Shown one piece after another: positions 1 through 45,927 of a DNA stretch of 64,000 nt. Position 1 is the stretch's first letter. Each line of letters opens with the position of its first letter. The position numbers and the translations under genes are program-made. The DNA comes from a virus (taxonomy: Duplodnaviria; Caudoviricetes). The stretch is from IMG/VR virus record IMGVR_UViG_2599185230_000001, positions 1 to 64,000 of that record; one strand, 5' to 3'. The notes under the pieces were generated by a model. It was not told where the DNA came from. It worked only from the letters and a program-made list of their open reading frames with translations, and ran no database searches.

Positions 1-63
1 TTGCTATGTTTTTTCTCTACCAAAAAACAACATAGCAAAGCTGGCTTCTGCCGAAGCCTTTTT

Positions 64-88
64 AAAAACCCTGCTTTCGCAGGTTTTT
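64..88. terminator. Intrinsic terminator, possibly bidirectional
   Basis: AAAAAC-CCTGC-TTTC-GCAGG-TTTTT. Confidence 0.65.
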
Positions 89-396
89 ATTCGGGTGATC
101 TCCGACACCCGGGACCGGCGGGCGGCGAATAGTGAGACCCCATCTTAAACCGTGTCCCTTTAAACGACCTCCATCACTACCGTGATGGCGCGTATATGGC
201 GCGGGACCCTATGACGCCGTTGGTCCGGATGGCTTATGCCATCCCCGGATTATTAGCAGTTACCACTGCCACGGGTTCTAACGAACCCTCCGACTAACCT
301 GGTATCTACCAAGTGAAAATTAAACGGCAACTTCGTTGCCCATTGATCACTATGATCACTTTCCCCTTTCGGAGTGGCCCGGCTTACGCCAGGCCA
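64..396 (-). ncRNA. Candidate large structured ncRNA (or ssDNA structure), family unknown
   Basis: No ORF. About 11 consecutive short hairpins; minus-strand loops include GUAA, GAAA, GUUA, GGUA. Four G-U wobbles work only on the minus strand. Ends in a GAAA hairpin plus U tract. Confidence 0.55.
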
Positions 397-468
397 GTTA
401 ACTTACAATTAATATTTCTACCTCACCAGTAATCGTGGTCGTTTTCTTGGATATCTAGGATTTTTAGG

Positions 469-858
469 TTAGGCAGATTGAGAATGTTCATTGGATATCA
501 CATTAAATAATCTTTCAGTTTCTCTTTTATGCCATCTACCATGTCTTAAATATTTCATGTGAGCTATTTCGTGGCATATAAGTCCTTCTAATGATTCAGG
601 TTCTAGTTTAGGCCATGAATTTGCGCCTCTTATTCCCTGGCTCCAGCGATGATCACAATAACATTCATGGATGAAAAATTCATCTACAGTTATTTGATAT
701 ACTTTTTTATTTTCATCGGCATATGCAATACCTAAAGCATTTTCATATCCTTCAACCTTTCCGTGGTCATAAGCAAGAATAGGAATGATTATGTTAAATT
801 TCAACTTAATATTGGTAACTATATCGTCAAAATACTGTTGTTCCTGTTCTGTTAGCAT
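469..858 (-). CDS. HEXXH zinc metalloprotease-like protein (SprT/YgjP-like)
   Basis: ICHEIAH...HG..H motif; GGGAG SD. Confidence 0.6.
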   Translation of the reverse strand: MLTEQEQQYFDDIVTNIKLKFNIIIPILAYDHGKVEGYENALGIAYADENKKVYQITVDEFFIHECYCDHRWSQGIRGANSWPKLEPESLEGLICHEIAHMKYLRHGRWHKRETERLFNVISNEHSQSA

Positions 859-955
859 TTAAAACTCCCTCATTACTAAAGATTTATCTGATCAACACTG
901 TAATCCTGAAAGCCGGTTTTTAGTTAATACCACTAGGTGCTCATTCATCATCTTT

Positions 956-1013
956 ATACCGGCCTACTAGCCGGTATTCCCTCCCTTCGAATTGGATTTA
1001 CCGGCCTTCCGGC
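956..1013 (-). promoter_or_regulatory. RBS-switch repeat, variant copy (CCGGC stems)
   Basis: Minus strand: GCC-GGAA-GGCCGGUA...GGGAGGG A AUACCGGC-UAGUAG-GCCGGUAU AAAG AUG; followed only by a 19-codon ORF. Confidence 0.55.
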
Positions 1014-1025
1014 TTGGTTATTAGA

Positions 1026-1430
1026 TCATTTTTTTAGCCTTTCGGCAAAATACATATAACCATTATCGCCGCAACATTCTTTACAAGCTACGCTTCCATT
1101 ATTTGCACATGTTGGACAGGGATTAAGCGGATCTGTTTTCATGCTATTATCATGTTTCTGAACCCAACCAAGTGCATCTTCGCCGGTATAGGCATAGCCG
1201 TCAGCAACACTATCAATACCACCAACGTCCTTGCGGTCCTTATGGTAGATCTCAATGATACCTGCATTTAAATCCATCCAATAATAGCTATTTGAGTGAA
1301 AGTAGAAACCGATTCCGCCGGCCTCATACCAGCCGGCTGCTTTAATAGTTTCTTCCGCCGCTTTCATCCGTAGGGATTCCTGTTCTGATGTCTCACGCAT
1401 CAGGTCTTCATGAGTCAGCTTCTTAACCAT
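1026..1430 (-). CDS. Hypothetical protein with C-terminal Cys cluster
   Basis: Start moved to ATG 1430 after AAGGAGG; CPTC...CKECC. Confidence 0.6.
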   Translation of the reverse strand: MVKKLTHEDLMRETSEQESLRMKAAEETIKAAGWYEAGGIGFYFHSNSYYWMDLNAGIIEIYHKDRKDVGGIDSVADGYAYTGEDALGWVQKHDNSMKTDPLNPCPTCANNGSVACKECCGDNGYMYFAERLKK

Positions 1431-1443
1431 AAGCCCAACCTCC

Positions 1444-1830
1444 TTACTTTTGAATGAATTCAGAAATATGCGGTACCTTAACTTTTTCAAGCTTGCTCTC
1501 GCAAAGAGGGCATTTATTATTACTTTCATCCAAGCTGAAAACTTCACCGCAGCTTGTACACTTATATTCGGACACCTGCTTTACACTGGTTTTTATGGCA
1601 TTCCAGCACTCTAATAGCGGGCCGGCTACGTGCAAGATTTCATTTTCGATAAGTTGCTGGTTTCCGCTGCGCAACGCGCCAAGGAGATGCCCCATATGTT
1701 CCCCGGCAATCACTCCCCATTCTATAGGCTTGCGCTCGTCATCCTCTTTATTACTGCCGTGCACTTCGCGGTTGATTTCTTGCTGTGCTAAAACGGCTTT
1801 TATAAAGCTTTGGGCTTCTTGTAACGTCAT
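1444..1830 (-). CDS. MazG-like helical protein fused to a zinc ribbon
   Basis: W..IAGEHMGH...ENEILHVA resembles MazG-like W..IL.EEVGE...EL.QVA; CxxC...CPLC tail. Confidence 0.45.
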   Translation of the reverse strand: MTLQEAQSFIKAVLAQQEINREVHGSNKEDDERKPIEWGVIAGEHMGHLLGALRSGNQQLIENEILHVAGPLLECWNAIKTSVKQVSEYKCTSCGEVFSLDESNNKCPLCESKLEKVKVPHISEFIQK

Positions 1831-1913
1831 TTAATATACCTCCTATTCTCTACCCCTTAAAGGGGTGGTCCAGCATTCATATAATTATCCTCTCCACCAT
1901 GTTCTTTTAAATA

Positions 1914-2231
1914 TTAAGCACCAAGGTGCTTTGCACATGCTAACGCAGCTTTCGCAGCAAACTCAAAACCTTGATAAGTCACCCCAAATAAGGCTACTTT
2001 CCTAATTTCATCAACATTTGCAACTTCAATTAATATATAATGCCCCTCATATCCAGTTGACGGGTAACATACAAGCCAGCTATATTCCGGGAATTTCTGT
2101 TCCGGATCTACAGAAGGTAGAGTATCAAAATATTCTTCCGGATAACAATCTTCACTTTTAAGACGTTTTTCAAGCTCCTTTAAGACTTCACCGATAGTTT
2201 TATTTTCAATTTCAATTGGCTTTACTTTCAT
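1914..2231 (-). CDS. Hypothetical protein
   Basis: 105-aa ORF with AGGAGG SD, co-oriented with neighbours. Confidence 0.6.
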   Translation of the reverse strand: MKVKPIEIENKTIGEVLKELEKRLKSEDCYPEEYFDTLPSVDPEQKFPEYSWLVCYPSTGYEGHYILIEVANVDEIRKVALFGVTYQGFEFAAKAALACAKHLGA

Positions 2232-2382
2232 TAATGGTTTGTCCCTCCTGTATTCTGCGCCCAGTGGGCGCAGTTTTTATTTGCACCCACCGGGGGAATA
2301 CTGACAATAGAGCTTGTTAGTAGCTTGTTATCATAGTTAAGCTAAAGCTGGCTACAAAATCTGCCAATTGCTTACAGGTCTT

Positions 2383-2775
2383 TTATGCCCATTCAGCTCT
2401 TTTGTAGGCAGGTAGTTCTCCTACAATTTCACCGGCAAGATCATTTGCCAGTCTATCCATGTCTTTAAACAGCTGCGATTTTGGCACATCGCCTTCCATG
2501 CATTGGTACAAAAATCCTCTCAGGGACTTATATACCTGCACTTTACTTTCTGGCTGACATTTGTATTTATACAAGTTTAATGGATTGTTTTCTCCGTAGC
2601 GTTGATCTATTGCTCTGACGTTCATGGCCCAAAGGTTTTGCCCGAGCTTATTCGGTTCTCCTTTGTAAGCGTCCGAAATTGCCGGATAGTAATGATAGAT
2701 AGTGTCTATAAGCTTGCCATGGATAAATGTTACAATCCGGTCGATTGTTTCCTTCCCGACGATATATGCGCTCAT
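2383..2775 (-). CDS. Hypothetical protein
   Basis: Start moved to MSAYIV (2775) after GGAGG. Confidence 0.6.
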   Translation of the reverse strand: MSAYIVGKETIDRIVTFIHGKLIDTIYHYYPAISDAYKGEPNKLGQNLWAMNVRAIDQRYGENNPLNLYKYKCQPESKVQVYKSLRGFLYQCMEGDVPKSQLFKDMDRLANDLAGEIVGELPAYKRAEWA

Positions 2776-2864
2776 ATTCCCTCCACCTACTGCGAGCCGG
2801 ATGGCCCAAATGCAGTAGGCCACCCGTTTTTATTGCTCCGGTGGTGGGCATATTTTATTAACCG

Positions 2865-3605
2865 TTAAATATATCCTTTAGCTTTAAAACTCACAAACTT
2901 GCTATCTCCGATCACCAGGTGATCTAATACATTGATACCAATAATATTACCTGCCTCAATTAGGCGTTTGGTAACCTCTATATCTTGCTGGCTGGGTGTT
3001 GGATCACCGCTGGGATGGTTGTGGACCAATACTAATCCCGCCGCGCTACGCCTTACGGCATTTTTATAAAGCTCTCTGGGGTGAATCGGTGAAGAATTCA
3101 ACGTGCCGATAGAAATTGTTTCCCGGGCTATTACTTGGTTTTTTGTGTTTAGCAACAGAGCCCAAAAGTGCTCCCGGTCCAGGTAACGCATTTCTTCCAT
3201 CACCAGGGCTGCAGCGTCTTCCGGAGATTTTATAAATGGTAAATCCTCCGGCATGAGCTTGGTCATGCGTCGGGCAAGCTCAAAGGCAGCTGCAAGGCGT
3301 ATCGATTTCTCTATACCTATACCAGGCAAATTCAATAATTCTTCAGATGACATCTGGGCAAGTGCCCGAAGTCCCTGTTTCATCAAAAATTCCATTGTTT
3401 CATCGGGTATAGGTCCAAGAATGCAACCTAGTACGCCAAACAGTTCACTCGACTCAACACCATACCGAATAGCTTCTTCCCTGACTTGTAAGGACAGTGT
3501 TCTATGAACGCTTCCTACCGGTCGTTTCACTTTCAAATCCCGTGAGCTTGGCACTTCTTTGGTATATTGTTTTAACTCCTCTTCACTCCACAGCATATTT
3601 TGCAT
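2865..3605 (-). CDS. radC: RadC family JAB-domain protein
   Basis: HhH GIG motif; EHF..LLLN.KN; HPRE; HNHPSGDPTPS..D; LDHLVIG. Confidence 0.95.
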   Translation of the reverse strand: MQNMLWSEEELKQYTKEVPSSRDLKVKRPVGSVHRTLSLQVREEAIRYGVESSELFGVLGCILGPIPDETMEFLMKQGLRALAQMSSEELLNLPGIGIEKSIRLAAAFELARRMTKLMPEDLPFIKSPEDAAALVMEEMRYLDREHFWALLLNTKNQVIARETISIGTLNSSPIHPRELYKNAVRRSAAGLVLVHNHPSGDPTPSQQDIEVTKRLIEAGNIIGINVLDHLVIGDSKFVSFKAKGYI

Positions 3606-3710: not shown

Positions 3711-4055
3711 TTAATCAAACTTCAAAAATTGCTCTACCATTTCTAAATCTTCTTCTCTCTTTTTCCTAAAATACTCATCTTCATCATACTTAAAGTATAT
3801 TAAGGTAAAAAATCTTACATTTTCTAAACACACAAACAACTGACAACTTTTATCACTATACACTTCACTATCAAAATCCAAATCATACTTTTTAACATAT
3901 TCAACAAAATTTTTTGGACTTAAGGCAAAACTTATTCTAATTCTGTCATTACGTTCTATATTAACATTGCAACTATATGACTCAACCTCTTTTAAAATTT
4001 TATTTAAATTTGCAGCACATTTATTGGAAATATTAAGAATCTCATTCAGATTCAT
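3711..4055 (-). CDS. Hypothetical AT-rich protein
   Basis: ORF with AAAGGTGG SD before ATG 4055. Confidence 0.55.
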   Translation of the reverse strand: MNLNEILNISNKCAANLNKILKEVESYSCNVNIERNDRIRISFALSPKNFVEYVKKYDLDFDSEVYSDKSCQLFVCLENVRFFTLIYFKYDEDEYFRKKREEDLEMVEQFLKFD

Positions 4056-4069
4056 TTTTAAACCACCTT

Positions 4070-4654
4070 TCAAAACTCTCTATTGAAGCTATTTAAAGCC
4101 ATCATCTGAATTTCAGCGTTGCTGCTTAATAAACACTCAACCAAGTACTCATAATAGTCAACTTTGTGCAGCAGCCCTGCTAAATCGCAGTGTGCTTGAT
4201 AACCGCCGGCTGCAAGTGAGTAATTAATTGTCCGCACAAGCAGCGACAGTGTTTCGTAAGCTTTATCCAACCTCTCGCATAATATCCGTTCCTTTTCCCG
4301 TTTCTTGGCTTGCTGCATTATCTTTCGGCGGGATGCCGATGATAGCGGCTTATTTACTTCAATACCAAAATCCCGGGCAATCATTCGTGCAGCCTCAATT
4401 AGTTCTAAATTGAATATTTTGGCTACTAAATCGACCCCATCGCCATGCTCACCACAGCCGAAGCATTTCCATGTTCCGTTTGGGAAAACAACGAAAGACG
4501 GTGAGTGATCATCATGAATCGGGCACCGAGCCGCCCAACGCCTACCGCGCTTCTTTAGCTCGACAATGTTATAGCGATTAATAATCTCCACAATATTTAT
4601 CTGTTTAACAAGTTGAAATATATTAATTCGCTGTGTTTCATTTGCAGCGCGCAT
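4070..4654 (-). CDS. CHC2 zinc-finger protein (DnaG N-terminal domain, no TOPRIM)
   Basis: CPIHDDHSPSF...WKCFGCGEHGD. Confidence 0.85.
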   Translation of the reverse strand: MRAANETQRINIFQLVKQINIVEIINRYNIVELKKRGRRWAARCPIHDDHSPSFVVFPNGTWKCFGCGEHGDGVDLVAKIFNLELIEAARMIARDFGIEVNKPLSSASRRKIMQQAKKREKERILCERLDKAYETLSLLVRTINYSLAAGGYQAHCDLAGLLHKVDYYEYLVECLLSSNAEIQMMALNSFNREF

Positions 4655-16220: not shown

Positions 16221-18908
16221 TTATTTCGGGATATTATTTAATATTGACTTTAACTTTTTCACAATTTCACTGGCCACCTGCTCTACAATTCCATCTAACT
16301 CCTCTTTAGAGTTCACTATAATTTGTCCAACAAGTCCGGCAAGATCAAAGTTAAGATATATCTTCGGAGCACCGCTAACAGCATCCGTAGCCGGCATAGG
16401 TGATGGAACGGTACCAGAAAAACCACCCATTGCATACTGCTTAACCCCAATTACTTCCCCAGCCTGTTGCCAAAGTCTAAATGCCCGGTCTCTTTTAGTT
16501 GGCGATAATGGAATAATAGCCTCCGGTCCGGCCTCGGCCACCAGACCTAAGTGTGGTCGTGTGAGAATGCCTCCAAAAGCATGAGCTTCATAATCAAAGT
16601 GCTTAAAATCAGCAACACTCGTTTTGATAGGTTCTAAAGCTTTTATCCCAGAAAATGCAATTAACTTTGCACTAGCGAAATCTACAGCTTGTGCTAAAGT
16701 CGTAAATGCCTGCATTAAATTATTTTGCGAGTTAATCACAAAGCCATTTGACGTAATAATATCTCCCTGGCTATTCAGGTAAACCTGGCCTGTTTGAGCA
16801 ATGCGCTCCTGCTGTTTACTTGCAGCCTCACCAGACTTAGCTAGTTTTTCATTAGCATCAGCAGCAGGAGATTTATCAAAAAGTTTCCCTGCAGTCCATT
16901 TGCCGCCAATATAACCAGCTAAACCACCCAAAGCGCCTCCAATGGCTGTACCGATACCAGGTAGGATTGCCGTACCAATGCCAGCACCTATTTCAGCACC
17001 TGCCCATCCTCCGCCCAGACCAAACGCCGCCTTGCCAGTAGCAGTAACTTTATTTTCCGCTTGCGCAATACCAACCGCCTCACCGGCAATTGCCAAAGGC
17101 CAGGCTAGCTTACCGATTACCTTACTTGCCGTTGATAAACCGCTACCCAACGAACCTAAAACTCTACTTGATGTTGCAATTTCCGCTGCAGGAGTAGCAG
17201 CCCCTGATGAGGCGGCTGGTAGTACTTCCCGAAGGATATTGCCAGATGGCCCATATATTATTCTTGAATTTTGCGCTGATGTGTTTGCTGCAGCTGCTAC
17301 TACCGAACTCCTTGAGGCAGTATTAGCAGCATTAGCCACCATGTCTGTGGTTCTGGAAGCAGCGTTCACGGCCCCTGCACCATATGTTGCCCTGGCTATA
17401 CTGGCAGCCAACGGATTAGTTGTTTCCAGAGCGGCAATCCTTGCAGCATTTCTTGTGTTCATCCAGGTATTGATCGTTCTACCTGCGTTCGCAAGCCCCC
17501 TACCGGCACCCCATGCGCCACGCAATACCATGCCGCCACCGAGCAATCCGGCACCCATGGCAAGTCCGGCAGAACCGATAATATTACCATGTAGAGCTGC
17601 ATCCACAGATCCTTTAGCCATCCCACCCAATGCTGTAATCCATGCTCTAGTTGCTATCTCGGCCAGCTTAATAAATAATTCTTCAACTCGCTTTCCTCCC
17701 GGTCCGGATACCCAGGTGTTCATATCATCAACCATCTTATCAAGGGCTTTTGAGATATCCTTCATAATGAAATCTACTTTGCCGTCAAAACTTAACTCCT
17801 GAAATTCCGGATTATCAAGATACCTCACCCGGATATACTCGAAGGCCCTTTCCATTTTCGAAAGAACTGCATCTGCCGCTTGGCCACCAAATTTGACCAA
17901 GCTATCTTTCCATCTTTCTATCGTCTTTTCATTTTTATCAAACCAATCAGTTATTTTTCGGAGGCGTGGATTTATCTCTTCTAGAGATCCAACGCCAGCT
18001 TGACGGAATAATGTCTTGATTGTATCAGTAATGGTGCTAAATCGTCCGGTAGCTGTTTGTGACAGCTTTTCAGCGCCACCAGCAAATTTTTGCTCGGCTT
18101 TTTCAAGGAATCCAACCCAACCACCCAGGGTTTTAAATTCTTCCTGGGTCATTTTCATGCTAAATTCCTTCATACGCTCAAACTCACCCATTTGCGCATC
18201 AGCAAGCGCTTCCATGGCATCCTGTACAGTTTTTCCCGGTGTTAATGCAGCCATATCTCCTGCCAGAGATACCATCTGTTTGGCCATTGATATATCACCG
18301 CCGCTAATACCTATACCGCGGCTCATGGCTGGAAATAAATCTCCCATTTCAAAAGGAGTCTTGGCAGCAAAACTATTCAACCAATTAGTTACTTCTTGTG
18401 CTGCTTTCTTATTACCGCCCAGCCAATGCTCCATACTAACTTGTTGGATCTCAAAATCCATAGCTGCGCCGATAGTTAGTTTGCCAACTCCATACACCCC
18501 GGCGCCAGCCCCTAACAAACCAAGTGGACTGATAAGCTTAGTAATTATTCCACCGGTCATGTCTCTAGCTTGAATAGCAACTGTAACAGTCCTGTGTCCA
18601 ATACGATCTATAGTGTTTATAATTCTCCTGGCAGGCTCGGTGAAGCGGTCCCTTAACCGGACGAATGGATTAGCTTCCATCCTATTTAGATTGCGGTTTT
18701 GTGATTCGATAATCCTGGCTGATCTTGTATAATGATCTTCCAGCCTGACGGATGGGGTAGCTACGGACCTGTTTAGAACTTGCGATTGCCTTGTAATTCT
18801 TTCAAAAACTGTACGTAATCTTTCTTCTGCAGCCTGTGCCCGTCTGATTGCTTCCTCATCTTGAACGTCGATAACAATGTCATACCGGTAAATCTCTCTT
18901 TCAGCCAT
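16221..18908 (-). CDS. Tail tape measure protein
   Basis: 895 aa, Ala/Gly rich; A.KTPFE; A.GG...AEAGPEAIIPL. Confidence 0.9.
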   Translation of the reverse strand: MAEREIYRYDIVIDVQDEEAIRRAQAAEERLRTVFERITRQSQVLNRSVATPSVRLEDHYTRSARIIESQNRNLNRMEANPFVRLRDRFTEPARRIINTIDRIGHRTVTVAIQARDMTGGIITKLISPLGLLGAGAGVYGVGKLTIGAAMDFEIQQVSMEHWLGGNKKAAQEVTNWLNSFAAKTPFEMGDLFPAMSRGIGISGGDISMAKQMVSLAGDMAALTPGKTVQDAMEALADAQMGEFERMKEFSMKMTQEEFKTLGGWVGFLEKAEQKFAGGAEKLSQTATGRFSTITDTIKTLFRQAGVGSLEEINPRLRKITDWFDKNEKTIERWKDSLVKFGGQAADAVLSKMERAFEYIRVRYLDNPEFQELSFDGKVDFIMKDISKALDKMVDDMNTWVSGPGGKRVEELFIKLAEIATRAWITALGGMAKGSVDAALHGNIIGSAGLAMGAGLLGGGMVLRGAWGAGRGLANAGRTINTWMNTRNAARIAALETTNPLAASIARATYGAGAVNAASRTTDMVANAANTASRSSVVAAAANTSAQNSRIIYGPSGNILREVLPAASSGAATPAAEIATSSRVLGSLGSGLSTASKVIGKLAWPLAIAGEAVGIAQAENKVTATGKAAFGLGGGWAGAEIGAGIGTAILPGIGTAIGGALGGLAGYIGGKWTAGKLFDKSPAADANEKLAKSGEAASKQQERIAQTGQVYLNSQGDIITSNGFVINSQNNLMQAFTTLAQAVDFASAKLIAFSGIKALEPIKTSVADFKHFDYEAHAFGGILTRPHLGLVAEAGPEAIIPLSPTKRDRAFRLWQQAGEVIGVKQYAMGGFSGTVPSPMPATDAVSGAPKIYLNFDLAGLVGQIIVNSKEELDGIVEQVASEIVKKLKSILNNIPK

Positions 18909-19956: not shown

Positions 19957-21396
19957 TTAATAACGGATAATGCCGGTGCCGAAGATTTTTTCCATGCTAT
20001 CAATCACCCGGGCATTCCATTTCCAATAAAATTCATCACCGAGAGCATTGGCCTGCAGTTCAGTGTCAACTTCCACTGTAAAGTCGCCATTTATCAGGGT
20101 AGGAGCCAGGGTTTCAAAATATTTCTTAATGGCGGAAAGCAGCGCCGCCTGCCCATCGTTATTATTGAGCACCTTACCAATGTAATTATCATGGGCAGCC
20201 TGGGTTGTATCCACATCAATAGCATCAATGATCCTGATGATCTTAATCTTTTTCCATGCATCATCCTGGTCTTCTGACAGGGTGGTAAGGGTATTGATAC
20301 CTCTTTCAATAATTACCTTTTCGCCATCATGCATTAAAACCAGCGTACCGGCCCGAAGGGCACTCACGAATTGGTTATCCGTTAGCCTGGGCTGCACGTC
20401 ATCAAACGGTGTTACTGCATAAGTTAGGCTTTCGCGCAGCGCCTGGCCGGTGCCTTTGCTGGCTATATAGCAGGCCACCATACTGCTGGGATATAACACC
20501 CCGTCCAACTGAGCGCTAACCCCAACATTTACAATACCTTCATAATTAAAGCCGTTGGACCTGGCATTAGCTACAGTAATATCAGCATCATCAGTTGCCG
20601 ACCCGCCAAGGTAGGCGATAATCTTTTTACCTTCATTGCGCAGCCGGGCAACCCAGGCGGCCACCGAAGTCTGGAGCGCCGCGTCGGTAGCCCCGTCCAA
20701 AGTAAAGGCGTTGAAAATTCTGGCCTCAAAAACCGACATTGCGTCAATATAATCAGCATTAACAACTCCGGCACTGCCATCATTGCCACCGGCCAGAGGC
20801 TGGCTAACCACATTAGCAATGGTGCCGGCTCCATTATCCAATTTTGTGGCATCAATCCAAACGTTTTGAGAGTTTCCATTAATTGCGGCCACAGCATTAT
20901 CTACCACTGAAACCCCTTTGTCAAAGGTAAAGACAAATAGCTCAGTGGTATTCTCATAAAGGACAAGATCCTGTTTATTTACTGAATCAACCAGGTTCTC
21001 TCTGGTAGTTACTTTAAAACCTCTGGTTGTGGGATATTTGGAATCAATTTTTAGCACATTTGCCGCAGCGCCATCTTGCAGATTAATACTTGCCTTGGCT
21101 GCTACCCCATCCACTAAGCGGTATGCCAGGACGGTTTTAATACCGCCGAGCAAGGCCAGGCGTATACACGGGTAGGCGGTGTAATTACCTGTATCCTCAA
21201 TGTTGTAGGTATCTTTCAGCTCTTTCTCGGAGGTAATTTCCTTTATTTCCTTCGCAGGCCCCCAGTTGGCCTTTACCGGCATGGCCAATATGCCCCTTAC
21301 ACCAGGTTGAATTGCCGCCAGGGCTGCCGCAACAAAACGCATATAAAACCCCGCACGTTCAGGTTTATCCGTTTCAGACCAGGTTCCACCAGCCAT
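19957..21396 (-). CDS. Tail sheath protein (XkdK-like)
   Basis: MAGGTW; R.G.Y..F; WGP; GINT.T; KI..IR..D. Confidence 0.92.
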   Translation of the reverse strand: MAGGTWSETDKPERAGFYMRFVAAALAAIQPGVRGILAMPVKANWGPAKEIKEITSEKELKDTYNIEDTGNYTAYPCIRLALLGGIKTVLAYRLVDGVAAKASINLQDGAAANVLKIDSKYPTTRGFKVTTRENLVDSVNKQDLVLYENTTELFVFTFDKGVSVVDNAVAAINGNSQNVWIDATKLDNGAGTIANVVSQPLAGGNDGSAGVVNADYIDAMSVFEARIFNAFTLDGATDAALQTSVAAWVARLRNEGKKIIAYLGGSATDDADITVANARSNGFNYEGIVNVGVSAQLDGVLYPSSMVACYIASKGTGQALRESLTYAVTPFDDVQPRLTDNQFVSALRAGTLVLMHDGEKVIIERGINTLTTLSEDQDDAWKKIKIIRIIDAIDVDTTQAAHDNYIGKVLNNNDGQAALLSAIKKYFETLAPTLINGDFTVEVDTELQANALGDEFYWKWNARVIDSMEKIFGTGIIRY

Positions 21397-30565: not shown

Positions 30566-32305
30566 TCACCTATATATCCGAAGTTTTTTAAGCACATCCA
30601 AAAGACTTTGGTCAACCTGCTGCTTAGTCCTTGCCAAAGTGCGGCAGGCTTCCAGAGCGTCAGGGCCGTCGTCATTCGACGCCATGGGAAAGAACTTCAA
30701 TTGTTCTAAAAGTCGCTTATGCCTGGCATTAAATTTGATGTAGCGGTTCTTGATATCAGGCTGCAAAGTTTGAATGCGGCCATATTTATCACCTGTTTGA
30801 TTAATCTCTTCAATAGGCAGATAAATACCTTCCTCAGCACTGCGCCGAGCCAATACTTCCTTTAGGTACCACTGAAACTGGTTGGTCTCACAACCGAACA
30901 AGGTATAACCACGACCATATGTTAGCTTCAGCCAGCGTTCCTTTTCCAGAATATCCTCAATTATTTGATCCGGATGACGTCGCTCAATATCGGCATCCAG
31001 GTCATACAAATATCCTGTCTGAATATCCCTGGCCAATGTAATAATACAGGAAAAGTCGCTTTTTTTCTTCTTGCCTTTGCCCCCCAGGGAGGGGTCCACA
31101 AAACCAAAGAAACGGTACCGTTTTTCCCTAAAATCAATAGCGGCTTCATTGTAGTATTCAAACCATTCTTCTTGAAACAAACAATCATCCTGGTTGATCG
31201 GCTCGTTCTGATACTCACTGTTGAATGATGCTTCACCTTCAGTTACTTTGTCCACCATCAACTTATAATAAGAATTCTTGTCTTCCCAAAGCACCTTGGT
31301 TCCTTGAAGCATCTTATCACGGTTGGACATAAAAAAGGACCGTGCGTCTTCTTCATGGTTCTCATTGGAAAGATCAATATAAATCTCTTCCCATTGATCC
31401 CAAAGGTCTTGCCGTTGGGCGAAAGAAAGAACAGCTTTATACTTAACGGTCCTGTATCCCGGGTTATTTAATATCTTAGCCAACAAGCTGTCATAATGAA
31501 GTAAGGTACCTATATAAATAAAATCTGTGTAACTGTCGCCGGCCTTGCTTACCGCTTTGAAATACCAATTGTTCAGCTTTTTTCTTTGTTCAGGTGTATT
31601 GACGTTTTCATCATTCTCAATATCATCAAGAACAATTAAATCAGGACGCCAGTTACGATGTTTCCGGCCCCTGATTTTTTTCCCTGAACCTATAGCCTCA
31701 ACCTTGATATCAGCGGAGGTGAGTAATACGTTATTACGCCAAACCTTTCCCACCAGGTCGCCAAAGTCTTCACGAATGGCCTCGTTTTCCTCCAGCTCCT
31801 CCCGGATGCTTTCAAGGAAGCCCTCAGCTTGCTCAGAGGAATCGGAGATAATCACAATGTAGTGTTTATATTCGTAAAGAACTGCATGGGTGGTATCTTT
31901 AAATGTAACGTTTGTGGACTTGGCGTGCCCACGTGGTGCCGCAATTGCGCGTTTGCATCCCGGCAGTTTGCTTATTTTTTTGCCAATATTTTTGAGAATA
32001 GCAGACTGGTTTTTTAAAACACCATCTTGCCATATGGCATCCAGTTCCCTGTGAAAATCAGGAGTTTGGCGGCTGAAGTAGTGGGGGAAATATGCTTTCC
32101 CGAAATACTCCAGATCGATAGCCCCAAGCTTTTTTCTTATCCCGTGTTTGCCGGTCAGGGGCTTTCCATCCCGGTAGTCTTGCAAAAGCTTCAAACGCTC
32201 GGGCGAAGAGTCCCTCTGCAGGTATTTCTCCATGAGCATTTTTAGCTCTTCCACCCCCTGGTGCACTTCCAGGTTTCGTTCCCTGATGTCTTTTAAAATG
32301 CTCAC
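30566..32305 (-). CDS. terL: Terminase large subunit
   Basis: APRGHAKST; RPDLIVLDDIE; VDPSLG; DDGPDALE; GTG start at 32305 after GGAGG. Confidence 0.95.
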   Translation of the reverse strand: MSILKDIRERNLEVHQGVEELKMLMEKYLQRDSSPERLKLLQDYRDGKPLTGKHGIRKKLGAIDLEYFGKAYFPHYFSRQTPDFHRELDAIWQDGVLKNQSAILKNIGKKISKLPGCKRAIAAPRGHAKSTNVTFKDTTHAVLYEYKHYIVIISDSSEQAEGFLESIREELEENEAIREDFGDLVGKVWRNNVLLTSADIKVEAIGSGKKIRGRKHRNWRPDLIVLDDIENDENVNTPEQRKKLNNWYFKAVSKAGDSYTDFIYIGTLLHYDSLLAKILNNPGYRTVKYKAVLSFAQRQDLWDQWEEIYIDLSNENHEEDARSFFMSNRDKMLQGTKVLWEDKNSYYKLMVDKVTEGEASFNSEYQNEPINQDDCLFQEEWFEYYNEAAIDFREKRYRFFGFVDPSLGGKGKKKKSDFSCIITLARDIQTGYLYDLDADIERRHPDQIIEDILEKERWLKLTYGRGYTLFGCETNQFQWYLKEVLARRSAEEGIYLPIEEINQTGDKYGRIQTLQPDIKNRYIKFNARHKRLLEQLKFFPMASNDDGPDALEACRTLARTKQQVDQSLLDVLKKLRIYR

Positions 32306-32423
32306 TTGACCACCTCCATCCCCGGGCATAGCTTCGCCATCCAACACTTTCCTTCAAAGTGCAGCACTTTACTTCGTTTGTTCTCGTAGCGCCACGTCAC
32401 CGCCGAAACAGGTGCCGCTTTAC
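32306..32423 (-). promoter_or_regulatory. Structured RNA between the NusG paralog and terL
   Basis: CACC-U-GU-UUCG-GC-GGUG hairpin; AAAGUG/CACUUU/AAAGUG alternative pairing; AUGGC-GAA-GCUAU hairpin. Confidence 0.6.
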
Positions 32424-32918
32424 TTACGATGCCTGAATAAACTCAATCCCGAGGTTAACCTCCATTTCTTTCTGAAAGAGCGTTAACCTGACCTTTGCTC
32501 TTCTTTTGCGCTTATCAATCTTTACAATATAGCCTTCCATGCCCGTAAGCGGGCCGTTAATAACTTTAATTGATTCGCCGATTTCCAGGGTGGACAATCC
32601 AACCAATTCATCATCCTTACACAACCACAAAACATTAGCCATTTGATCATCAGGCACTGGAATGGGTCTGTGGTGAGCTAAAAAATTGATGACACCTGCT
32701 ATTCGCCTGGCCGCATAATAATTCTTTTCATCCAGATCCATTTGCACAAAAACATACGATGGGAAAAGAATTCTGACGACTTCCCTAAAAGTACCCTTGT
32801 GTCGTTCAATAACTTTTTGCCTGGGCGCCAGGGCATTTATGCCGGGTAGATCCAGAAGCAGCTTCTCCTTGATAGTGGTTTCTTCCCCAGTCATGACGTG
32901 GAGCACATACCATTTCAT
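32424..32918 (-). CDS. NusG paralog, LoaP-like antiterminator
   Basis: NGN: WYVLHV.TG.E, LFPSYVFV; KOW: GPL.G.EG.IVKIDKRKRRAKV. Confidence 0.9.
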   Translation of the reverse strand: MKWYVLHVMTGEETTIKEKLLLDLPGINALAPRQKVIERHKGTFREVVRILFPSYVFVQMDLDEKNYYAARRIAGVINFLAHHRPIPVPDDQMANVLWLCKDDELVGLSTLEIGESIKVINGPLTGMEGYIVKIDKRKRRAKVRLTLFQKEMEVNLGIEFIQAS

Positions 32919-40589: not shown

Positions 40590-41552
40590 CTAAAGCATCA
40601 TCATATTGCTTGCTTTGGCGATAGTATCCAGGGTGATCTCCGTTATACCTTCACCGTCCTGGCCATCCATCAGCCGGATGATATTATTCAGTGTCCTGTC
40701 CATCAGCCTGAAACAACCGGTTTGGCTGTTGGTCGCCCTTTTGATCATTTCCTGCAACGCCTCATCCGTAAACGGGAAGGGCTCCAGGTACTCCATAACT
40801 TCTTTTTTGGTCAGCCCTTGTAGGGAGTAATAGTTGTCCACCCGGTTGGCAAACCGTGCCAAGTACCCTTTAACTTGTGACTCCAGCTTTGGCTCACCGG
40901 CTACGACCAAGCCTACATCCGACTGATCAAATATAGAGCGCAATATTTCCATTTTCTTTTGGGTGTACTTGCTGATTAGCTTATCCGCCTCATCTATAAT
41001 CAACAAATAGCCTTTATTAAAGTTAAAAAACTCCTTAATACCGTTTACCCGCTTCCAAATGGTGCCGTACCCGGAAGGGATGCCCAATGCCTTCTCAATT
41101 GCCTCTACCATATCGCGACAACTCATAATATCGTCACATTCCACATAGGCAACTCGAGGCATCTTAGTGTAATATTCCAGAGTGCGGCTCTTGCCGTAGC
41201 CAGATTTTCCAACCACAACACCAAGTCCGGTAAAGTCCTGGCAGGTGCTACATACAGCGATGATGCCGGAGGCATCCCGGCTTTCAAAAAACTCTGGTTT
41301 TTGCAACTTTGGCGCTTGGGTTATAGGTGTAACGACCTTACCGCGCTCCCGAAGAAACTGAGTAAGTTTTGCCTGAATATCGGTGGTATCGCTTTCATAC
41401 TTGCCATTTAAGTACCTTGAAAGTGCTGTTCTATGGTAATTTATTTCTCTGGCCACTTCCGTAATGGTCAATCCGCTTTTCTCCATAAAATCCTTAGCCA
41501 TTCTGGCCACATCCTGCGGCGCAATGGAATAAATCTTTGCAGCAGCTTCCAT
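40590..41552 (-). CDS. MuB-like transposition ATPase
   Basis: N-terminal HTH; GKSGYGKS; LLIIDEAD; LR.I.D. Confidence 0.92.
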   Translation of the reverse strand: MEAAAKIYSIAPQDVARMAKDFMEKSGLTITEVAREINYHRTALSRYLNGKYESDTTDIQAKLTQFLRERGKVVTPITQAPKLQKPEFFESRDASGIIAVCSTCQDFTGLGVVVGKSGYGKSRTLEYYTKMPRVAYVECDDIMSCRDMVEAIEKALGIPSGYGTIWKRVNGIKEFFNFNKGYLLIIDEADKLISKYTQKKMEILRSIFDQSDVGLVVAGEPKLESQVKGYLARFANRVDNYYSLQGLTKKEVMEYLEPFPFTDEALQEMIKRATNSQTGCFRLMDRTLNNIIRLMDGQDGEGITEITLDTIAKASNMMML

Positions 41553-41570: not shown

Positions 41571-43646
41571 TTATCCCAGTTTACGGAGCACAGCCAATGC
41601 TTTCTCCGCTTTTTTTCGATAAAATTCATTGTCTAACTGGTCATTATGCTTCTTATTCCTAACCTCATCCTTAAACTGCTTATCTTCCGGCAGGGCAACC
41701 ACATTGTCAACCGGTTTTTTGCCTTGCTTCTTAATGACAAAACCGCCCACCGTATCACTTGGCCCGTTGACATGCTGGTTGATGCGCTGTTCAAATGGGG
41801 TAGTGTATTCCTTGATGCGTTCTCTGTCCCGCTTAAGCTGCCTGTGCTGGGCCTTCATGTGCTCTTCCAAAGCCTTTTGAGGTACCTTTGGAGCAATTAA
41901 GAGCAGATCCTGACTTAAAGCCTCGCAGATTTTTTTGCCGTCTAAGGTGTAAACATACAACCTAGTCACATCTTCCTGGTCCCAACGAATATCTACTTTG
42001 TCGCCGATGTAGTCACATAACTCGTCCGCCCGGTACTCATAACCAAACTTATGGATTCCGGTGTTATAAACATGGACCCGGTCGGCCCTCATCATCAACA
42101 TACTGGCGTATGACCTAGGCGGCGCCGGCTTATAATAGCGCTCTTCGGCATTAGCGAACAACTCGGCAGGCTTTCTCCATTGTTCTTTTGCCTTTTTTAA
42201 GCCTTTGTGGTCCTTCTGGTGATACTTCTCATTGAGCCACTTCTGCCACAGTTCATAAAATTCTTCCAGTGTTAGCAGCTCATCCCGCTCCAGCATTCCC
42301 TTAATATCTTTTCTGACTTTACCCGCGGTGCGCGAGCCGGTTAGCGTTCCGGTGTAACTGGCCAACCATTTACTAAACTCACTGCACACTATGCCGAAAA
42401 AACGTTCGATATATGCCTTGCTCCATGGCTGATAAGGCAGGCTTCGAATATCATCCTGGATGCCAACGCTTTTGTAAAAGCCTACCGTCTCACTATCGAA
42501 GCTGACCCGATATTTGCGTTTGCGGCCCGTTAGGGTTTCGGCGGTGTATTCCTTCCCGTTGTCGATGTTGATCCATTGAGGAACCCCGCACGGTTTACCG
42601 CCAATTTCGTTGTAGATCATCTTTAGAATGGACTGCTTCATGATTTCAGCGTTGGCGTGTAAGCACATTACACTGCTGGGAATGGCCCTGCTTCTAATAT
42701 CTACCCAGGCCACCAGGTTGGGCTTGATGGCTGTTACCTTCCCATTAGGGTGTGTATACTTCACCCAATCGTCAAAGGTATGAACATCGCCTTGGACAAG
42801 CCCCATCACCGGCAGGGATTTAGAATCACGGGAAGCCTTGACCATAACTTTATTCCGGTATTCCCTGGCGCCTCTAGCCGCTAAGAAATGGGCATTTTTG
42901 CCCCGTTTTTCCTCCATCAGATAGTTTACATACCTGGCCACCGTCTGGTAGGAGGGGTAAGGCCAACCATTCTTTCCAGCGACTTCCTCCATCTTTTCGT
43001 AAAGCATCTCAACAGTGCTGTTATTGGCAGCAAATTCCTTATCAAACCACAGATTTTCAATGAAAGCCCTTGCTCTATCAGTCAGTGAAGGAAAGGTGAA
43101 TCGCTGTTTAGGCTTCCGGCACAAGGCTAAAACCTTGAAAAAATCATAATTTTTACCGTCTTCCTTGTTTAACTTCACGGCCCAGGCGCTTGCCTCCAGG
43201 TAGTTTTCCGCCTGCCGGTATAAGGTTCGTAGGCTTATCCCTTTTAAATCAGCGAACTCCTGGGCAAACTCGGTGCGGTTATCACCGGCGTAATTCAGAA
43301 ACTCCTGAACGGTCTTGGTGAATTCCACCGCCTTGTAATACTGGCCGCCATGGTTTTCGACGTACCAGTTTAATTCCACATCGACATACCATGGCATGCT
43401 GTTCGTTATCCGTTTATCAACCACAACATCCCCCCCTTCAATGCTTTGGGCTTCCTTATGCGCCCTTCGCGCTTTTTTCGAAAGGGAGGATACGGCAACC
43501 AGAACCCGCTCTTTGCCGCCGTTTACGGCTGGCTCTGTTTTGGTCTTAAAGGCTTCGGGATTGCGCTTCATGCGTTGAATTAGGGTGTTATACTTGATAC
43601 CCTCGTATTCCGCAGCCTCTTCCAGCGTGATATAAGCATCTGCCAA
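41571..43646 (-). CDS. MuA-like DDE transposase
   Basis: QGDVHTFD; IDNGKEY; KAYIERFF; Mu-transposase C-terminal G..V.IRWD..D. Confidence 0.95.
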   Translation of the reverse strand: MADAYITLEEAAEYEGIKYNTLIQRMKRNPEAFKTKTEPAVNGGKERVLVAVSSLSKKARRAHKEAQSIEGGDVVVDKRITNSMPWYVDVELNWYVENHGGQYYKAVEFTKTVQEFLNYAGDNRTEFAQEFADLKGISLRTLYRQAENYLEASAWAVKLNKEDGKNYDFFKVLALCRKPKQRFTFPSLTDRARAFIENLWFDKEFAANNSTVEMLYEKMEEVAGKNGWPYPSYQTVARYVNYLMEEKRGKNAHFLAARGAREYRNKVMVKASRDSKSLPVMGLVQGDVHTFDDWVKYTHPNGKVTAIKPNLVAWVDIRSRAIPSSVMCLHANAEIMKQSILKMIYNEIGGKPCGVPQWINIDNGKEYTAETLTGRKRKYRVSFDSETVGFYKSVGIQDDIRSLPYQPWSKAYIERFFGIVCSEFSKWLASYTGTLTGSRTAGKVRKDIKGMLERDELLTLEEFYELWQKWLNEKYHQKDHKGLKKAKEQWRKPAELFANAEERYYKPAPPRSYASMLMMRADRVHVYNTGIHKFGYEYRADELCDYIGDKVDIRWDQEDVTRLYVYTLDGKKICEALSQDLLLIAPKVPQKALEEHMKAQHRQLKRDRERIKEYTTPFEQRINQHVNGPSDTVGGFVIKKQGKKPVDNVVALPEDKQFKDEVRNKKHNDQLDNEFYRKKAEKALAVLRKLG

Positions 43647-45003: not shown

Positions 45004-45210
45004 CACCCACTTTTGTGGGTGCCTTGAAAATTTTTAATCACCTCCATAATTTTCTTTTTTTCGCACTGCCTACCTGATAGAATGTTGTTGTGGTATATGA
45101 ATCTATCATTTCAATTATACCACACGCTTGTGGGGTGTCAATAAAAATCCCCACGATTATGGGGTTAAATACCCAACAACCAAGGGGTTTAATACCATAC
45201 GTTTGTGGGA
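45004..45210. promoter_or_regulatory. Early promoter with five repressor operators
   Basis: Minus-strand TTGACA (45136-41) N16 TATAAT (45114-19); CCMCAC-N4-GTGGGG-like sites at 45005, 45120, 45149, 45172, 45195. Confidence 0.8.
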
Positions 45211-45222
45211 AGGGGGAGAGCT

Positions 45223-45927
45223 GTGTCTGAAAAATTTGGGAAGCGACTTAAAAAGGCTCTTAAACAAGCCGGATACACCCAGGCTAAGGCCACAGAAGAA
45301 CTTGGACTTTCTAAAAATGCTATAACTAATTATGTATCTGGTAGAATTCCTGATACTTTAATACTTTACAAACTTGCTAATTTATGTAATGTATCAATGG
45401 AATGGTTACTGTCCGGCAAAGAAACAAAAGCTGCTGGGAAAGCACATTTGGTTGAAGAAGCAGTTAGAAGATACGCGGTCGCCCAGCCTAAAATAATCGA
45501 AGTACCGGCAGGTGTAACAGTCCGTTATGCCGGTGAAACAGTGATGATCACCGATAAAGCAATGATGCTGGAAGACATTCGTGAAGCACTGGAAAAGGGT
45601 GTTGATGGTACGGGTTACCCCGAACTTACTAAAGAGCTGACCCATCTGGAATACCGGGAAAAAGAACAACTGGTTATTGTAGTAATTAAAGGTACTAAAA
45701 AGGGCCAGTTTATAACTAATAAGGAGGACGAAGAACTGCTGCCGTTATCGAGTGAAGAGCGGCAAATACTCTTAAAGTACCGATTGCTTGACGCCAGAGA
45801 TCAGTGTGATATCAAAGAAATTATTGACATGAAATATGAAAGAATGGTTAAAAGGGGAAGATCATACGGCTCCGGGAGTGGAGGAATAGGAAGCGGGGAA
45901 GAGGCGGCTGCTAAAGAATACGCCTAA
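45223..45927 (+). CDS. Prophage repressor (XRE HTH)
   Basis: FG.RLK..LK..G.TQ...LGLS...I.NY..G...VSMEWLL.G; divergent from the early operon. Confidence 0.88.
   Translation: MSEKFGKRLKKALKQAGYTQAKATEELGLSKNAITNYVSGRIPDTLILYKLANLCNVSMEWLLSGKETKAAGKAHLVEEAVRRYAVAQPKIIEVPAGVTVRYAGETVMITDKAMMLEDIREALEKGVDGTGYPELTKELTHLEYREKEQLVIVVIKGTKKGQFITNKEDEELLPLSSEERQILLKYRLLDARDQCDIKEIIDMKYERMVKRGRSYGSGSGGIGSGEEAAAKEYA

Follow-up and report, generated by a model that had tools for sequence, protein, structure and literature searches.

What is the run of hairpins with which this DNA begins? The window, i.e., the whole stretch of 64,000 nucleotides analyzed here (IMG/VR virus record IMGVR_UViG_2599185230_000001, positions 1 to 64,000), carries at positions 64-396 a stretch that an earlier examination of the letters alone, hereafter the sequence-only reading, had taken for a non-coding element of about 330 nt with structure specific to one strand. 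Here, we show that this stretch belongs to a real and conserved hairpin array that is specific to the sense strand, carries a distinctive loop motif, and occupies a set position in a family of conjugative elements, next to a gene for a tyrosine-recombinase-like (TR-like) protein. As to its function, we tentatively prefer, at somewhat less than an even chance, a transcribed insulator and leader.

Extent of the array

The eight hairpins quoted in the sequence-only reading were all found on the minus strand, at 375-396, 363-374, 326-340, 298-313, 273-288, 255-270, 227-244, and 171-188, with the four G-U pairs assigned to them, and the two further hairpins placed at 1-58 were also present. The eight span 133 of the 333 nt, and the minimum free energy (MFE) fold pairs most of the rest, a long-range helix included. 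The word GUUUAA, said to recur three times, was indeed detected three times on the minus strand (G at 325, 165, and 150) and never on the plus strand, versus the 0.06 occurrences that base composition would give. The G+C content was 0.53-0.58 in the stretch 64-396 versus 0.31-0.42 in the adjacent kilobase, and the non-coding nature proposed for the stretch was supported.

The claim that had to be given up was that of a self-contained unit ending at a GAAA terminator. This terminator, at 70-83, lies mid-array, and positions 64-396 are the upstream half of an array of about 775-860 nt with about 24 hairpins, which runs past the terminator and beyond the window start onto contigs C52 and C4. Base 1 of the window is the end of contig C5; the same strand carries on in C52 with about 365 nt more of hairpins, and C4, 91% identical to C52, likewise extends the minus strand downstream of the window element. 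The continuation in C52 comprises a hairpin of 18-21 bp that straddles the window edge, a perfect 26-bp stem capped by an 8-nt loop (C52 457-516), and a row of short hairpins. Window positions 1-410 matched the ends of C38 (same orientation) and C52 (reverse complement) at 100% identity, and the end of C4 was identical to positions 1-95. The assembly breaks at the array because it holds two related copies of the conjugative element, with flanks 74-91% identical (74-89% between C5 and C38), which have exactly the same 410-bp block in common, with C5 or C38 on one side and C52 or C4 on the other.

The 5' limit of the array, seen in C38, is about 20 nt past the stop codon of the preceding gene, and the 3' limit is GGGGGG-N5-ATG, i.e., the ribosome-binding site (RBS) and start codon of the TR-like gene. 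The array fills the entire gap from the last gene of a co-directional transfer/establishment block of >60 kb to this RBS. Two terminator-like sites were found on its sense strand and two on the antisense strand, and no sigma-70-like promoter site was found on the sense strand.

Folding and covariation

When positions 64-396 were folded with RNA parameters, the minus strand, which is the gene-sense strand, reached -143.4 kcal/mol (z -5.50), a value that 0 of 100 shuffled sequences equaled, and the plus strand reached -129.1 kcal/mol (z -5.08). With DNA parameters, the values were -76.0 (z -6.57) for the minus and -70.4 (z -6.22) for the plus strand. The sense strand had the lower MFE in 12 of 12 arrays; the same was true for 7 of 7 arrays in which 40 G-U versus 12 A-C combinations were counted.

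An alignment of the arrays from the window's genome (G000) and from genomes G028 and G089, with 465 columns and 135 consensus pairs, had 94.8% of its pair cells paired, versus only 88.1% on the complement strand, and contained 33 G-U versus 6 A-C cells. Sixteen pairs had changed on both sides, versus 6.6 ± 2.0 in shuffled alignments (0 of 500 reached 16) and 1-6 in a slid control where the partners were moved by 1-3 columns. Moreover, the long-range helix GGACC/GGUCC showed a double change from C-G to U-A in G089, and local cruciform-type repeats would have no need of such a helix. Variants in metagenomes, read against the window fold, were in agreement: a Watson-Crick pair becomes G-U with each of T230>C, G248>A, G227>A, and G223>A, a G-U pair becomes G-C with A312>G, and A349>G breaks a loop-closing pair, so that pairing on the minus strand appears to be mostly retained. 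Collectively, these sequence comparisons show an array structure that is selected on the gene-sense (non-template) strand, with stems that drift while their pairing is kept. The strand-specific structure of the sequence-only reading was thus borne out for the minus strand by the excess of G-U over A-C and the lower sense MFE, and the compensatory changes that it had suggested looking for in homologues were there.

Loop sequences

We took a census of the loops in the MFE folds of 12 arrays, some of them closely related to one another. Tetraloops made up 139 of the 219 hairpin loops, among them GGTA (62), GGCA (14), GGAA (8), GTAA (7), and GGGA (4), and a 5'C-G3' pair closed 95 of the 139. Nine less redundant arrays contained 82 GG(T/C)A sites closed by two or more pairs, including CGGTAG (39), CGGCAG (18), TGGTAA (9), and TGGTAG (7), whereas the bases beyond c-GGYA-g were near-random, without a wider consensus. 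The sequence-only reading had noticed that most loops were G-N-N-A, which is true but too loose; the hallmark of the whole family is c(GGYA)g, found in 5-16 hairpins per array and on the sense strand only.

In the window's array, GGTAG occurred 12 times versus 0 for CTACC, and GGTA occurred 17 times in 860 nt versus an average of 4.2 per kb per strand over the genome. Nowhere else in the 5.2-Mb genome do GGTA-loop hairpins cluster as densely, with 9 per 800 nt here versus a background of 0.255 per kb per strand. Other genomic clusters, of 4-5 such hairpins per 800 nt, were set aside; they have no hairpin array, are coding-like by eye, and look like chance.

The G at loop position 2 and the pyrimidine at position 3 exceed what loop stability would give, which points to a reader, and we infer that the GGYA loops are repeated docking sites for a putative factor. 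None of the readings ranked here accounts for the GGYA loops without adding such a putative reader, and its identity is a question worth an experiment. Candidate readers include the TR-like protein, the CHC2 zinc-finger protein (window 4070-4654), the Cys-rich 133-aa protein (1026-1430), the NusG of the host, and RNA polymerase. GGUA is not a GNRA loop, because position 3 is a pyrimidine; as DNA, cGGTAg fits the stable tetraloop class that has been described as d(cGNNAg). A sponge of the CsrB/RsmZ type was rejected on the loop counts: CsrA-type sponges present GGA (A(N)GGA) in their hairpin loops, not GGYA, and the census gave GGTA (62) and GGCA (14) versus GGAA (8).

Another kind of reader would be a transcription elongation factor. 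The c(GGTA)g hairpins might be ops-like, i.e., non-template DNA loops in the transcription bubble that are read by a NusG-family or another elongation factor. RfaH-type control of long horizontally acquired operons is established, and some array copies read GCGGTAGCG, which agrees with the ops sequence over 9 nt. The ops hairpin is described as a C3:G8 stem with a G4-G5-T6-A7 loop on non-template DNA, of which RfaH contacts the loop bases only (PMC5995543); the minimal unit, a C:G-closed GGTA loop, is exactly the array motif, which in the arrays likewise occurs on the non-template strand only. However, ops as described there is single, 12 nt long, located in operon leaders, accompanied by flanking pause determinants, and in need of RfaH (PMC5995543), whereas the arrays hold 5-16 copies on long stems, stand as rows of 8-16 at an operon end, and show neither a wider ops consensus beyond the loop nor a NusG paralogue that accompanies them. 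Eight of nine other array-bearing genomes had one NGN-domain gene only, with no specialized NusG paralogue, and the second NGN gene of G000 lies in a Mu-like phage. We consider ops-like recognition very unlikely.

Host element and distribution

Judged by gene content, the array does not lie on a rolling-circle plasmid or phage but in a conjugative element (coupling protein, VirB4-like ATPase, topoisomerase III, ArdC, RadC) with an inserted Mu-like prophage. Contig C38, whose genes lie nearly all on one strand, encodes a T4 coupling protein, topoisomerase III, a VirB4-like ATPase, an SLT+M23 cell-wall hydrolase, two Tad-like ATPase/platform sets, a ParM-like protein, HTH_36 proteins, and a terminal tyrosine integrase, and the neighbors of the array are RadC, an ArdC-like zincin, a CHC2 zinc-finger protein, and small conserved proteins. 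The homology of C5 to C38 is limited to C5 1-5.6 kb and a second stretch at 46.5 kb; therefore, the Mu-like phage sits inside another element. The 410-bp repeat at contig ends beside an integrase-like gene had prompted two further candidates, an attP site and the 3' end of a host RNA gene; both were rejected, since the region has element genes on either side in G001, G011, G059, G049, and G101 and in a 52.5-kb metagenome contig. This contig, from bovine gut, has the whole region with 16 differences in 888 nt.

Sequence searches for homologues, the check proposed along with the sequence-only reading, did find related arrays. DNA searches returned them in 6 of 61, 9 of 162, and, with a sister-type query, 12 of 162 genomes, all including G000; the union is 14 of the 162 genomes of the order, in 7 of its 20 families. 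A scan of genome contigs with the neighbor protein gave 3 loci only. A probe for the first hairpin, P1, had eight matches in metagenomes, three of them arrays (L026, L029, and L032) and five unrelated hairpins. There was no match to the array among 50,697 phage records, in viral contigs (neighbor protein and two DNA patterns), or at E ≤ 0.01 among 72,556 plasmid records (distant-mode blastn), and none outside the element contigs in G000. In the literature searched on the motif and on the pLS20 sequence EGeRS1 (see below), such arrays were not described.

The 5' hairpins of the window copy recur in G001, G011, G059, and G049. The 3' domain (window about 1-290) is 82-86% identical to that of G028 and G089, which belong to other families, and 90-95% identical to part of another metagenome contig, and one metagenome contig lacks window positions 248-353 (a 106-nt deletion). 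Judged from these alignments, the arrays are modular, with whole hairpins gained or lost and 3' domains that differ between genomes. In a sister type (G001, G011, G051, G049, G059, G045, G060, G090, and metagenome locus L026), the 3' domain is replaced by a core of about 450 nt. This core (L013 3550-4010 and homologues) has many invariant unpaired bases, e.g., AACG..GAUGACCAGGA and CCGGUCG.GAGCG, shows compensatory change in 18 of 101 predicted pairs, and has no Rfam match; it has the look of a separate large structured RNA.

Could the hairpins be functionless, selfish or neutral palindromic repeats (of the repetitive extragenic palindrome or miniature inverted-repeat transposable element kind) that piled up in a tolerant gap? 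The modular gain and loss of hairpins would suit such an origin, as would the P1 sequence, an ordinary terminator-like hairpin in unrelated context at five of its eight metagenome matches. However, the motif is not dispersed but concentrated in that one densest cluster of nine hairpins per 800 nt, position, orientation, and neighbor are fixed across families, and the 83-86% identity across families comes with compensatory changes. This explanation is highly improbable.

The TR-like gene and a possible role on the transferred strand

The gene downstream of the array, on the same strand, belongs to the tyrosine-recombinase family PF00589 (E 8e-15), its protein has only 8 database relatives, and it is followed by a gene for a DUF3268 zinc-finger protein and then by a Gp49/HTH pair. 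A TR-like gene lies 3' of the array at 9 of the 10 loci inspected (C52, C4, G089, G001, G011, G059/G049, L026, L032, and G101), with one extra open reading frame (ORF) in between in G059/G049; at the tenth, G028, only opposite-strand ORFs follow the array on the contig. This count leaves out G103, G104, G051, G045, G060, and G090. Within the order, array and TR-like gene occur together in at least 7 families. The TR-like proteins of G001 and G101 are 60% identical; the former resembles the C52 recombinase in its catalytic tail (E 2e-4) and the C52 DUF3268 protein in its N-terminal domain (41% identity, E 6e-24). In G101, a one-contig genome, the order is topoisomerase III, coupling protein, array, and TR-like gene. 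A second locus, L014 of Desulfotruncus alcoholivorax, has the P1 hairpin alone after the 133-aa gene, followed by the Gp49/HTH pair; it lacks both the array and the TR-like gene, and this fits the two forming one module.

A telomere-resolution site, suggested by a weak ResT/TelK Pfam match (E 0.0028, below the cut-off) and by the 26-bp palindrome, was rejected, the integrase family scoring far better. It was also observed that, in loci L040, L041, and L036 (G101, G103, and G104), the interval from the array to the TR-like gene contains many direct and inverted TGTCCGGACA-like words. These words, which the window's copy does not have, might bind a protein, as operator, partition, or oriT accessory sites.

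The neighborhood raises the possibility that the array works as single-stranded DNA (ssDNA) of the transferred strand. The sense strand would pass into the recipient after nicking, and its d(cGNNAg)-capped hairpins would fold immediately and serve as a single-strand origin (sso) or priming platform, or as an origin-of-transfer (oriT) or termination signal for an atypical, TR-like relaxase. The host is a conjugative element, and a search for three relaxase Pfam families, to which the observation is confined, found none of them on C5, C38, C52, or C4 (PF03432 only on C37, PF03389 and PF02486 nowhere). The 26-bp perfect inverted repeat with its 8-nt spacer is kept in G028 and G089 and resembles a recombinase core site. 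The 410-bp block, identical between two elements with differing flanks, can be likened to sso cassettes, which get exchanged between elements.

Known systems offer parallels. TR-like relaxases, i.e., TcpM, MpsA, and MobK, are on record, with oriT beside the gene; MobK binds its cognate oriT, and the predicted mobK promoter of pIGRK is placed within the oriT1 region (PMC8152469). The array, a non-coding region with inverted repeats, precedes a predicted TR-like gene at nine of the ten loci inspected. For pLS20, the non-template strand of the establishment genes is described as the one transferred (PMC8708921), and ICEBs1 is reported to have a functional sso1 that is orientation-specific, about 200 nt long, and made of three stem-loops (PMC4595007). 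Like ssoA, ssoT, ssoU, and ssoW of rolling-circle plasmids and sso1 of ICEBs1, the array consists of non-coding stem-loops, and like sso1 it lies in a Bacillota conjugative element; orientation specificity and activity on the displaced or transferred strand are sso features (PMC4595007).

On the other hand, the array is 0.8 kb long with about 24 hairpins, versus the size and three stem-loops given for known sso's (PMC4595007), and the plasmid collection, which would include these, contained nothing similar, although individual sso sequences were not aligned. The DNA-parameter folds of the two strands are nearly equal, and protein comparisons detected no closeness of the TR-like protein to a known relaxase; its best plasmid relatives are recombinases of small Clostridium perfringens plasmids, only 24-25% identical and not annotated as relaxases. 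We regard a role on the transferred strand, the main rival of the insulator and leader, as possible but doubtful.

Known RNA families and a possible trans-acting RNA

No known RNA family was recognized in the array. A search of window positions 1-3000 against Rfam 15 at E ≤ 1, which covered transfer-messenger RNA (tmRNA), RNase P, 6S, group I and II introns, OLE, GOLLD, ROOL, HEARO, and raiA, gave only SorX at 18.1 bits (gathering score 46.6, E 0.51); no family reached its gathering score, as the sequence-only reading had anticipated in finding no match. Seven homologous or flanking loci gave a single chance microRNA match at E ≤ 0.1, and ARAGORN detected no tmRNA. A group II intron, considered because of a GUGCG-like start in sister arrays, was rejected for want of Rfam support.

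The array, or a processed part of it such as the roughly 330 nt up to the terminator at 70-83, might act in trans as an RNA, either as a protein sponge by way of its GGYA loops or as a cofactor of the TR-like protein. Loop identity is kept while stems drift (the 82 GGYA sites of nine arrays), a compensated long-range helix closes a multibranch domain, and the sister core of about 450 nt combines invariant unpaired bases with 18 compensatory pairs out of 101. A precedent is Salmonella genomic island 1 (SGI1), which is described as needing sgm-sRNA, with a primary transcript of 650-700 nt and processed forms of 330-450 nt, encoded between oriT and the TR-like relaxase gene mpsA, with the SGI1 oriT upstream of mpsA (PMC9299015). 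As in the array, this is a region of several hundred nucleotides beside a TR-like gene in a mobilizable element, with terminator-like inverted repeats inside (PMC9299015). However, sgm-sRNA is proteobacterial, so that a relation in sequence would not be expected, and has its own mapped promoter, whereas no promoter-like site was seen on the sense strand before the array, and its description in that report mentions no hairpin array or GGYA motif (PMC9299015). Moreover, no binding protein was found for the loops, the array extends past the terminator, and the gain and loss of hairpins (the 106-nt deletion, the differing 3' domains) suits a loose array better than a single folded RNA. The loop difference from CsrA-type sponges also speaks against a sponge. 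A trans-acting RNA is, in our view, clearly unlikely.

Proposed function

We return to the reading that we tentatively prefer, a transcribed insulator and leader. The array would be transcribed as the tail of the upstream operon and as the leader of the TR-like gene; we infer this transcription because the array has no promoter-like site on its sense strand and is set between co-directional genes. As RNA, it may act as an orientation-specific insulator, in which the two sense terminators, the many stable hairpins, and the 26-bp stem would halt RNA polymerase, possibly antiterminated, where the transfer operon ends. The same RNA could serve as a structured leader and in this way control whether the TR-like gene is expressed, and its GGYA loops might repeatedly dock a putative factor.

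Two systems resemble this arrangement. The establishment gene regulatory sequence 1 (EGeRS1) of pLS20-family Bacillus conjugative plasmids is described as a promoter-less sequence of 400-600 bp packed with inverted repeats, with a G+C content of 51% versus 38% around it, which reaches up to the RBS of the following gene and stops read-through in its native orientation only; the authors' account leaves open whether RNA or ssDNA is responsible, and the pLS20/pBS72 copies are 62-95% identical to one another (PMC8708921). The array is also non-coding, G+C-rich, dense in inverted repeats, promoter-less, and adjacent to an RBS in a Gram-positive conjugative element. Nevertheless, blastn against the plasmid collection, pLS20 included, gave no sequence similarity, and EGeRS1-B of pLS20, located upstream of an ArdC-like gene, contains 0 GGTA, and its antisense strand gives the better fold (-322.6 versus -267.4). 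EGeRS1 occurs 4-5 times per plasmid, before establishment operons (PMC8708921), whereas the array occurs once per element, before the TR-like gene and behind ArdC/RadC genes. The two are alike in kind, not by descent. The second system is TerR, where a long stem is reported to make an operon-end terminator resist antitermination (PMC10325885). Both have an unusually long stem, 15 bp in TerR and 26 bp in the array, at the distal end of a long conjugation operon, but TerR is a single hairpin with a U-tract (PMC10325885), whereas some 20 further hairpins accompany the array's 26-bp stem.

Several points weigh against the insulator and leader. Transcription of the array is deduced from its position only, and two runs labeled RNA-Seq contained parts of the stretch only in long contigs, which are probably DNA. 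An insulator needs no given loop sequence, so the GGYA preference is left unexplained and an extra putative factor is required; TerR function, too, is reported to be independent of loop sequence (PMC10325885). The 26-bp stem has no U-run after it. GGUA is non-GNRA as RNA but fits d(cGNNAg) as DNA, and this favors a DNA-level reading. Given the lack of blastn similarity, the absence of GGTA, and the better antisense fold of EGeRS1-B, the analogy with EGeRS1 is functional only. Finally, the covariation count comes from three sequences, and the structure was derived from the same alignment.

A more speculative proposal, which we hold to be rather unlikely, is that the array and the TR-like gene form a new DNA-processing module, in which a multivalent platform of ops-type c(GGYA)g hairpins, on the transferred strand or in a long RNA comparable to sgm-sRNA of SGI1, would be a substrate or cofactor and bring in an atypical TR-like relaxase, or else a host factor, so that transfer is started, finished, or primed. 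If so, it would be the first use of one small, specifically read loop in 5-16 copies as a scaffold in conjugation. Should the array be a mere operon-end insulator, the annotation would still be useful; the region is neither a phage non-coding RNA nor an att site nor a gene.

None of the closest analogues (pLS20 EGeRS1, SGI1 sgm-sRNA, and the ops hairpin) is homologous to the array. Large Gram-positive conjugative elements carry long structured non-coding regions, of which the array is an independent, non-homologous example beside EGeRS1. It offers a sharper handle, i.e., a single defined loop, c(GGYA)g, present in 5-16 copies and on only one strand, beside a TR-like gene, which makes the question testable, and it ties together establishment-gene control, TR-like relaxases with an RNA cofactor, and the recognition of a non-template hairpin by NusG-family proteins.

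Other features of the window

The features of the array and of the surrounding genes are collected in Table 1. No other hairpin-dense stretch in C38 or C5 was like the array.

Table 1. Hairpins of the array, adjacent ORFs, and genes of the Mu-like phage, in window coordinates (-, minus strand; +, plus strand).
Feature	Position	Strand	Remarks
410-bp block, upstream half of array	1..410	-	100% identity at ends of C5, C38, C52
Hairpin P1, UGGCCUGGC-GUAA-GCCGGGCCA	375..396	-	Internal U-G pair retained in 5/5 aligned homologues
Hairpin CUCC-GAAA-GGGG	363..374	-	One U-G pair; homologues have CCCC/GGGG
Hairpin UGAUCA-UAG-UGAUCA	344..358	-	From fold
Hairpin GGCAAC-GAA-GUUGCC, then GUUUAAUUUU	326..340	-	Terminator-like score on sense strand
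Hairpin CUUGGU-AGAU-ACCAGG	298..313	-	G-U pair becomes G-C in metagenome variant
Hairpin GGGUUC-GUUA-GAACCC	273..288	-	From fold and 3-genome alignment
Hairpin GGCAGU-GGUA-ACUGCU, GGUA loop	255..270	-	Helix 3; compensatory change in 3 pairs
Hairpin GGAUGGC-AUAA-GCCAUCC	227..244	-	Helix 4; T230>C makes minus-strand A-U pair G-U
Multibranch domain closed by long-range helix GGACC (226-222) / GGUCC (116-112)	112..226	-	Holds c(GGUA)g hairpin 171-188; helix 5, 100% paired
Hairpin GGGUG-UCGGAGAU-CACCC	93..110	-	Helix 11; almost invariant in G028 and G089
A-run, CCUGC-GAAA-GCAGG, U-run	64..88	both	Intrinsic-terminator-like on both strands; hairpin and U-run 70-83; helix 12, 2 compensatory pairs
Hairpin GGCUUC-GGCA-GAAGCC, GGCA loop	43..58	-	Helix 13; terminator-like when read on plus strand
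Greater part of 18-21-bp hairpin, loop contains GGUAG (C52 369-414)	1..42	-	Cut by window/contig end; helices 14 and 17
C52 continuation of array: 26-bp perfect stem (C52 457-516), more c(GGUA)g hairpins	~365 nt beyond window base 1	-	C52 sequence
Last ORF upstream of array, 129 aa, letters HEIAH, no Pfam match	469..858	-	Same strand as array
Conserved 133-134-aa protein, C-terminal Cys pairs	1026..1430	-	Immediately upstream of array in C38, G001, G059, G049
Phage tape measure	16221-18908		
Phage sheath	19957-21396		
Phage terminase	30566-32347		
MuB-like protein	40590-41552		
MuA-like transposase	41571-43646		
Phage repressor	45205-45927	+	

The Mu-like transposable myophage occupies about 6000-46500 of the window and, in addition to the genes listed, encodes a portal and a MuF-like protein. 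The second NusG-family gene of the genome (NGN domain, 72 bits; 164 aa) lies at 32424-32918 on the minus strand, directly upstream of the phage terminase gene, and is a candidate late-operon antiterminator of the phage.

Two further observations concern C38. At L016 2447-5149, an ORF of 636 aa, classed by eye as a group II intron-type reverse transcriptase, adjoins an ArdC-like gene, of which only the last third is matched by the ArdC N-terminal domain, so that the intron may have interrupted it. At 20900-21300 (L017, about 900-1300), tandem units of about 40 nt, rich in GGTGGTG/CACCACC and inversely symmetrical within, coincide in part with an ORF of the HTH_36 (replication-initiator-like) kind and may represent either iterons or repetitive coding sequence. 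In the window itself, positions 3711-4073 have a G+C content of only 0.25-0.27 and hold an ORF of 120 aa between the RadC and CHC2 zinc-finger genes, probably a recent insertion, and the sole tRNA of the window, tRNA-Cys (GCA), was found at 60030-60104 on the minus strand.

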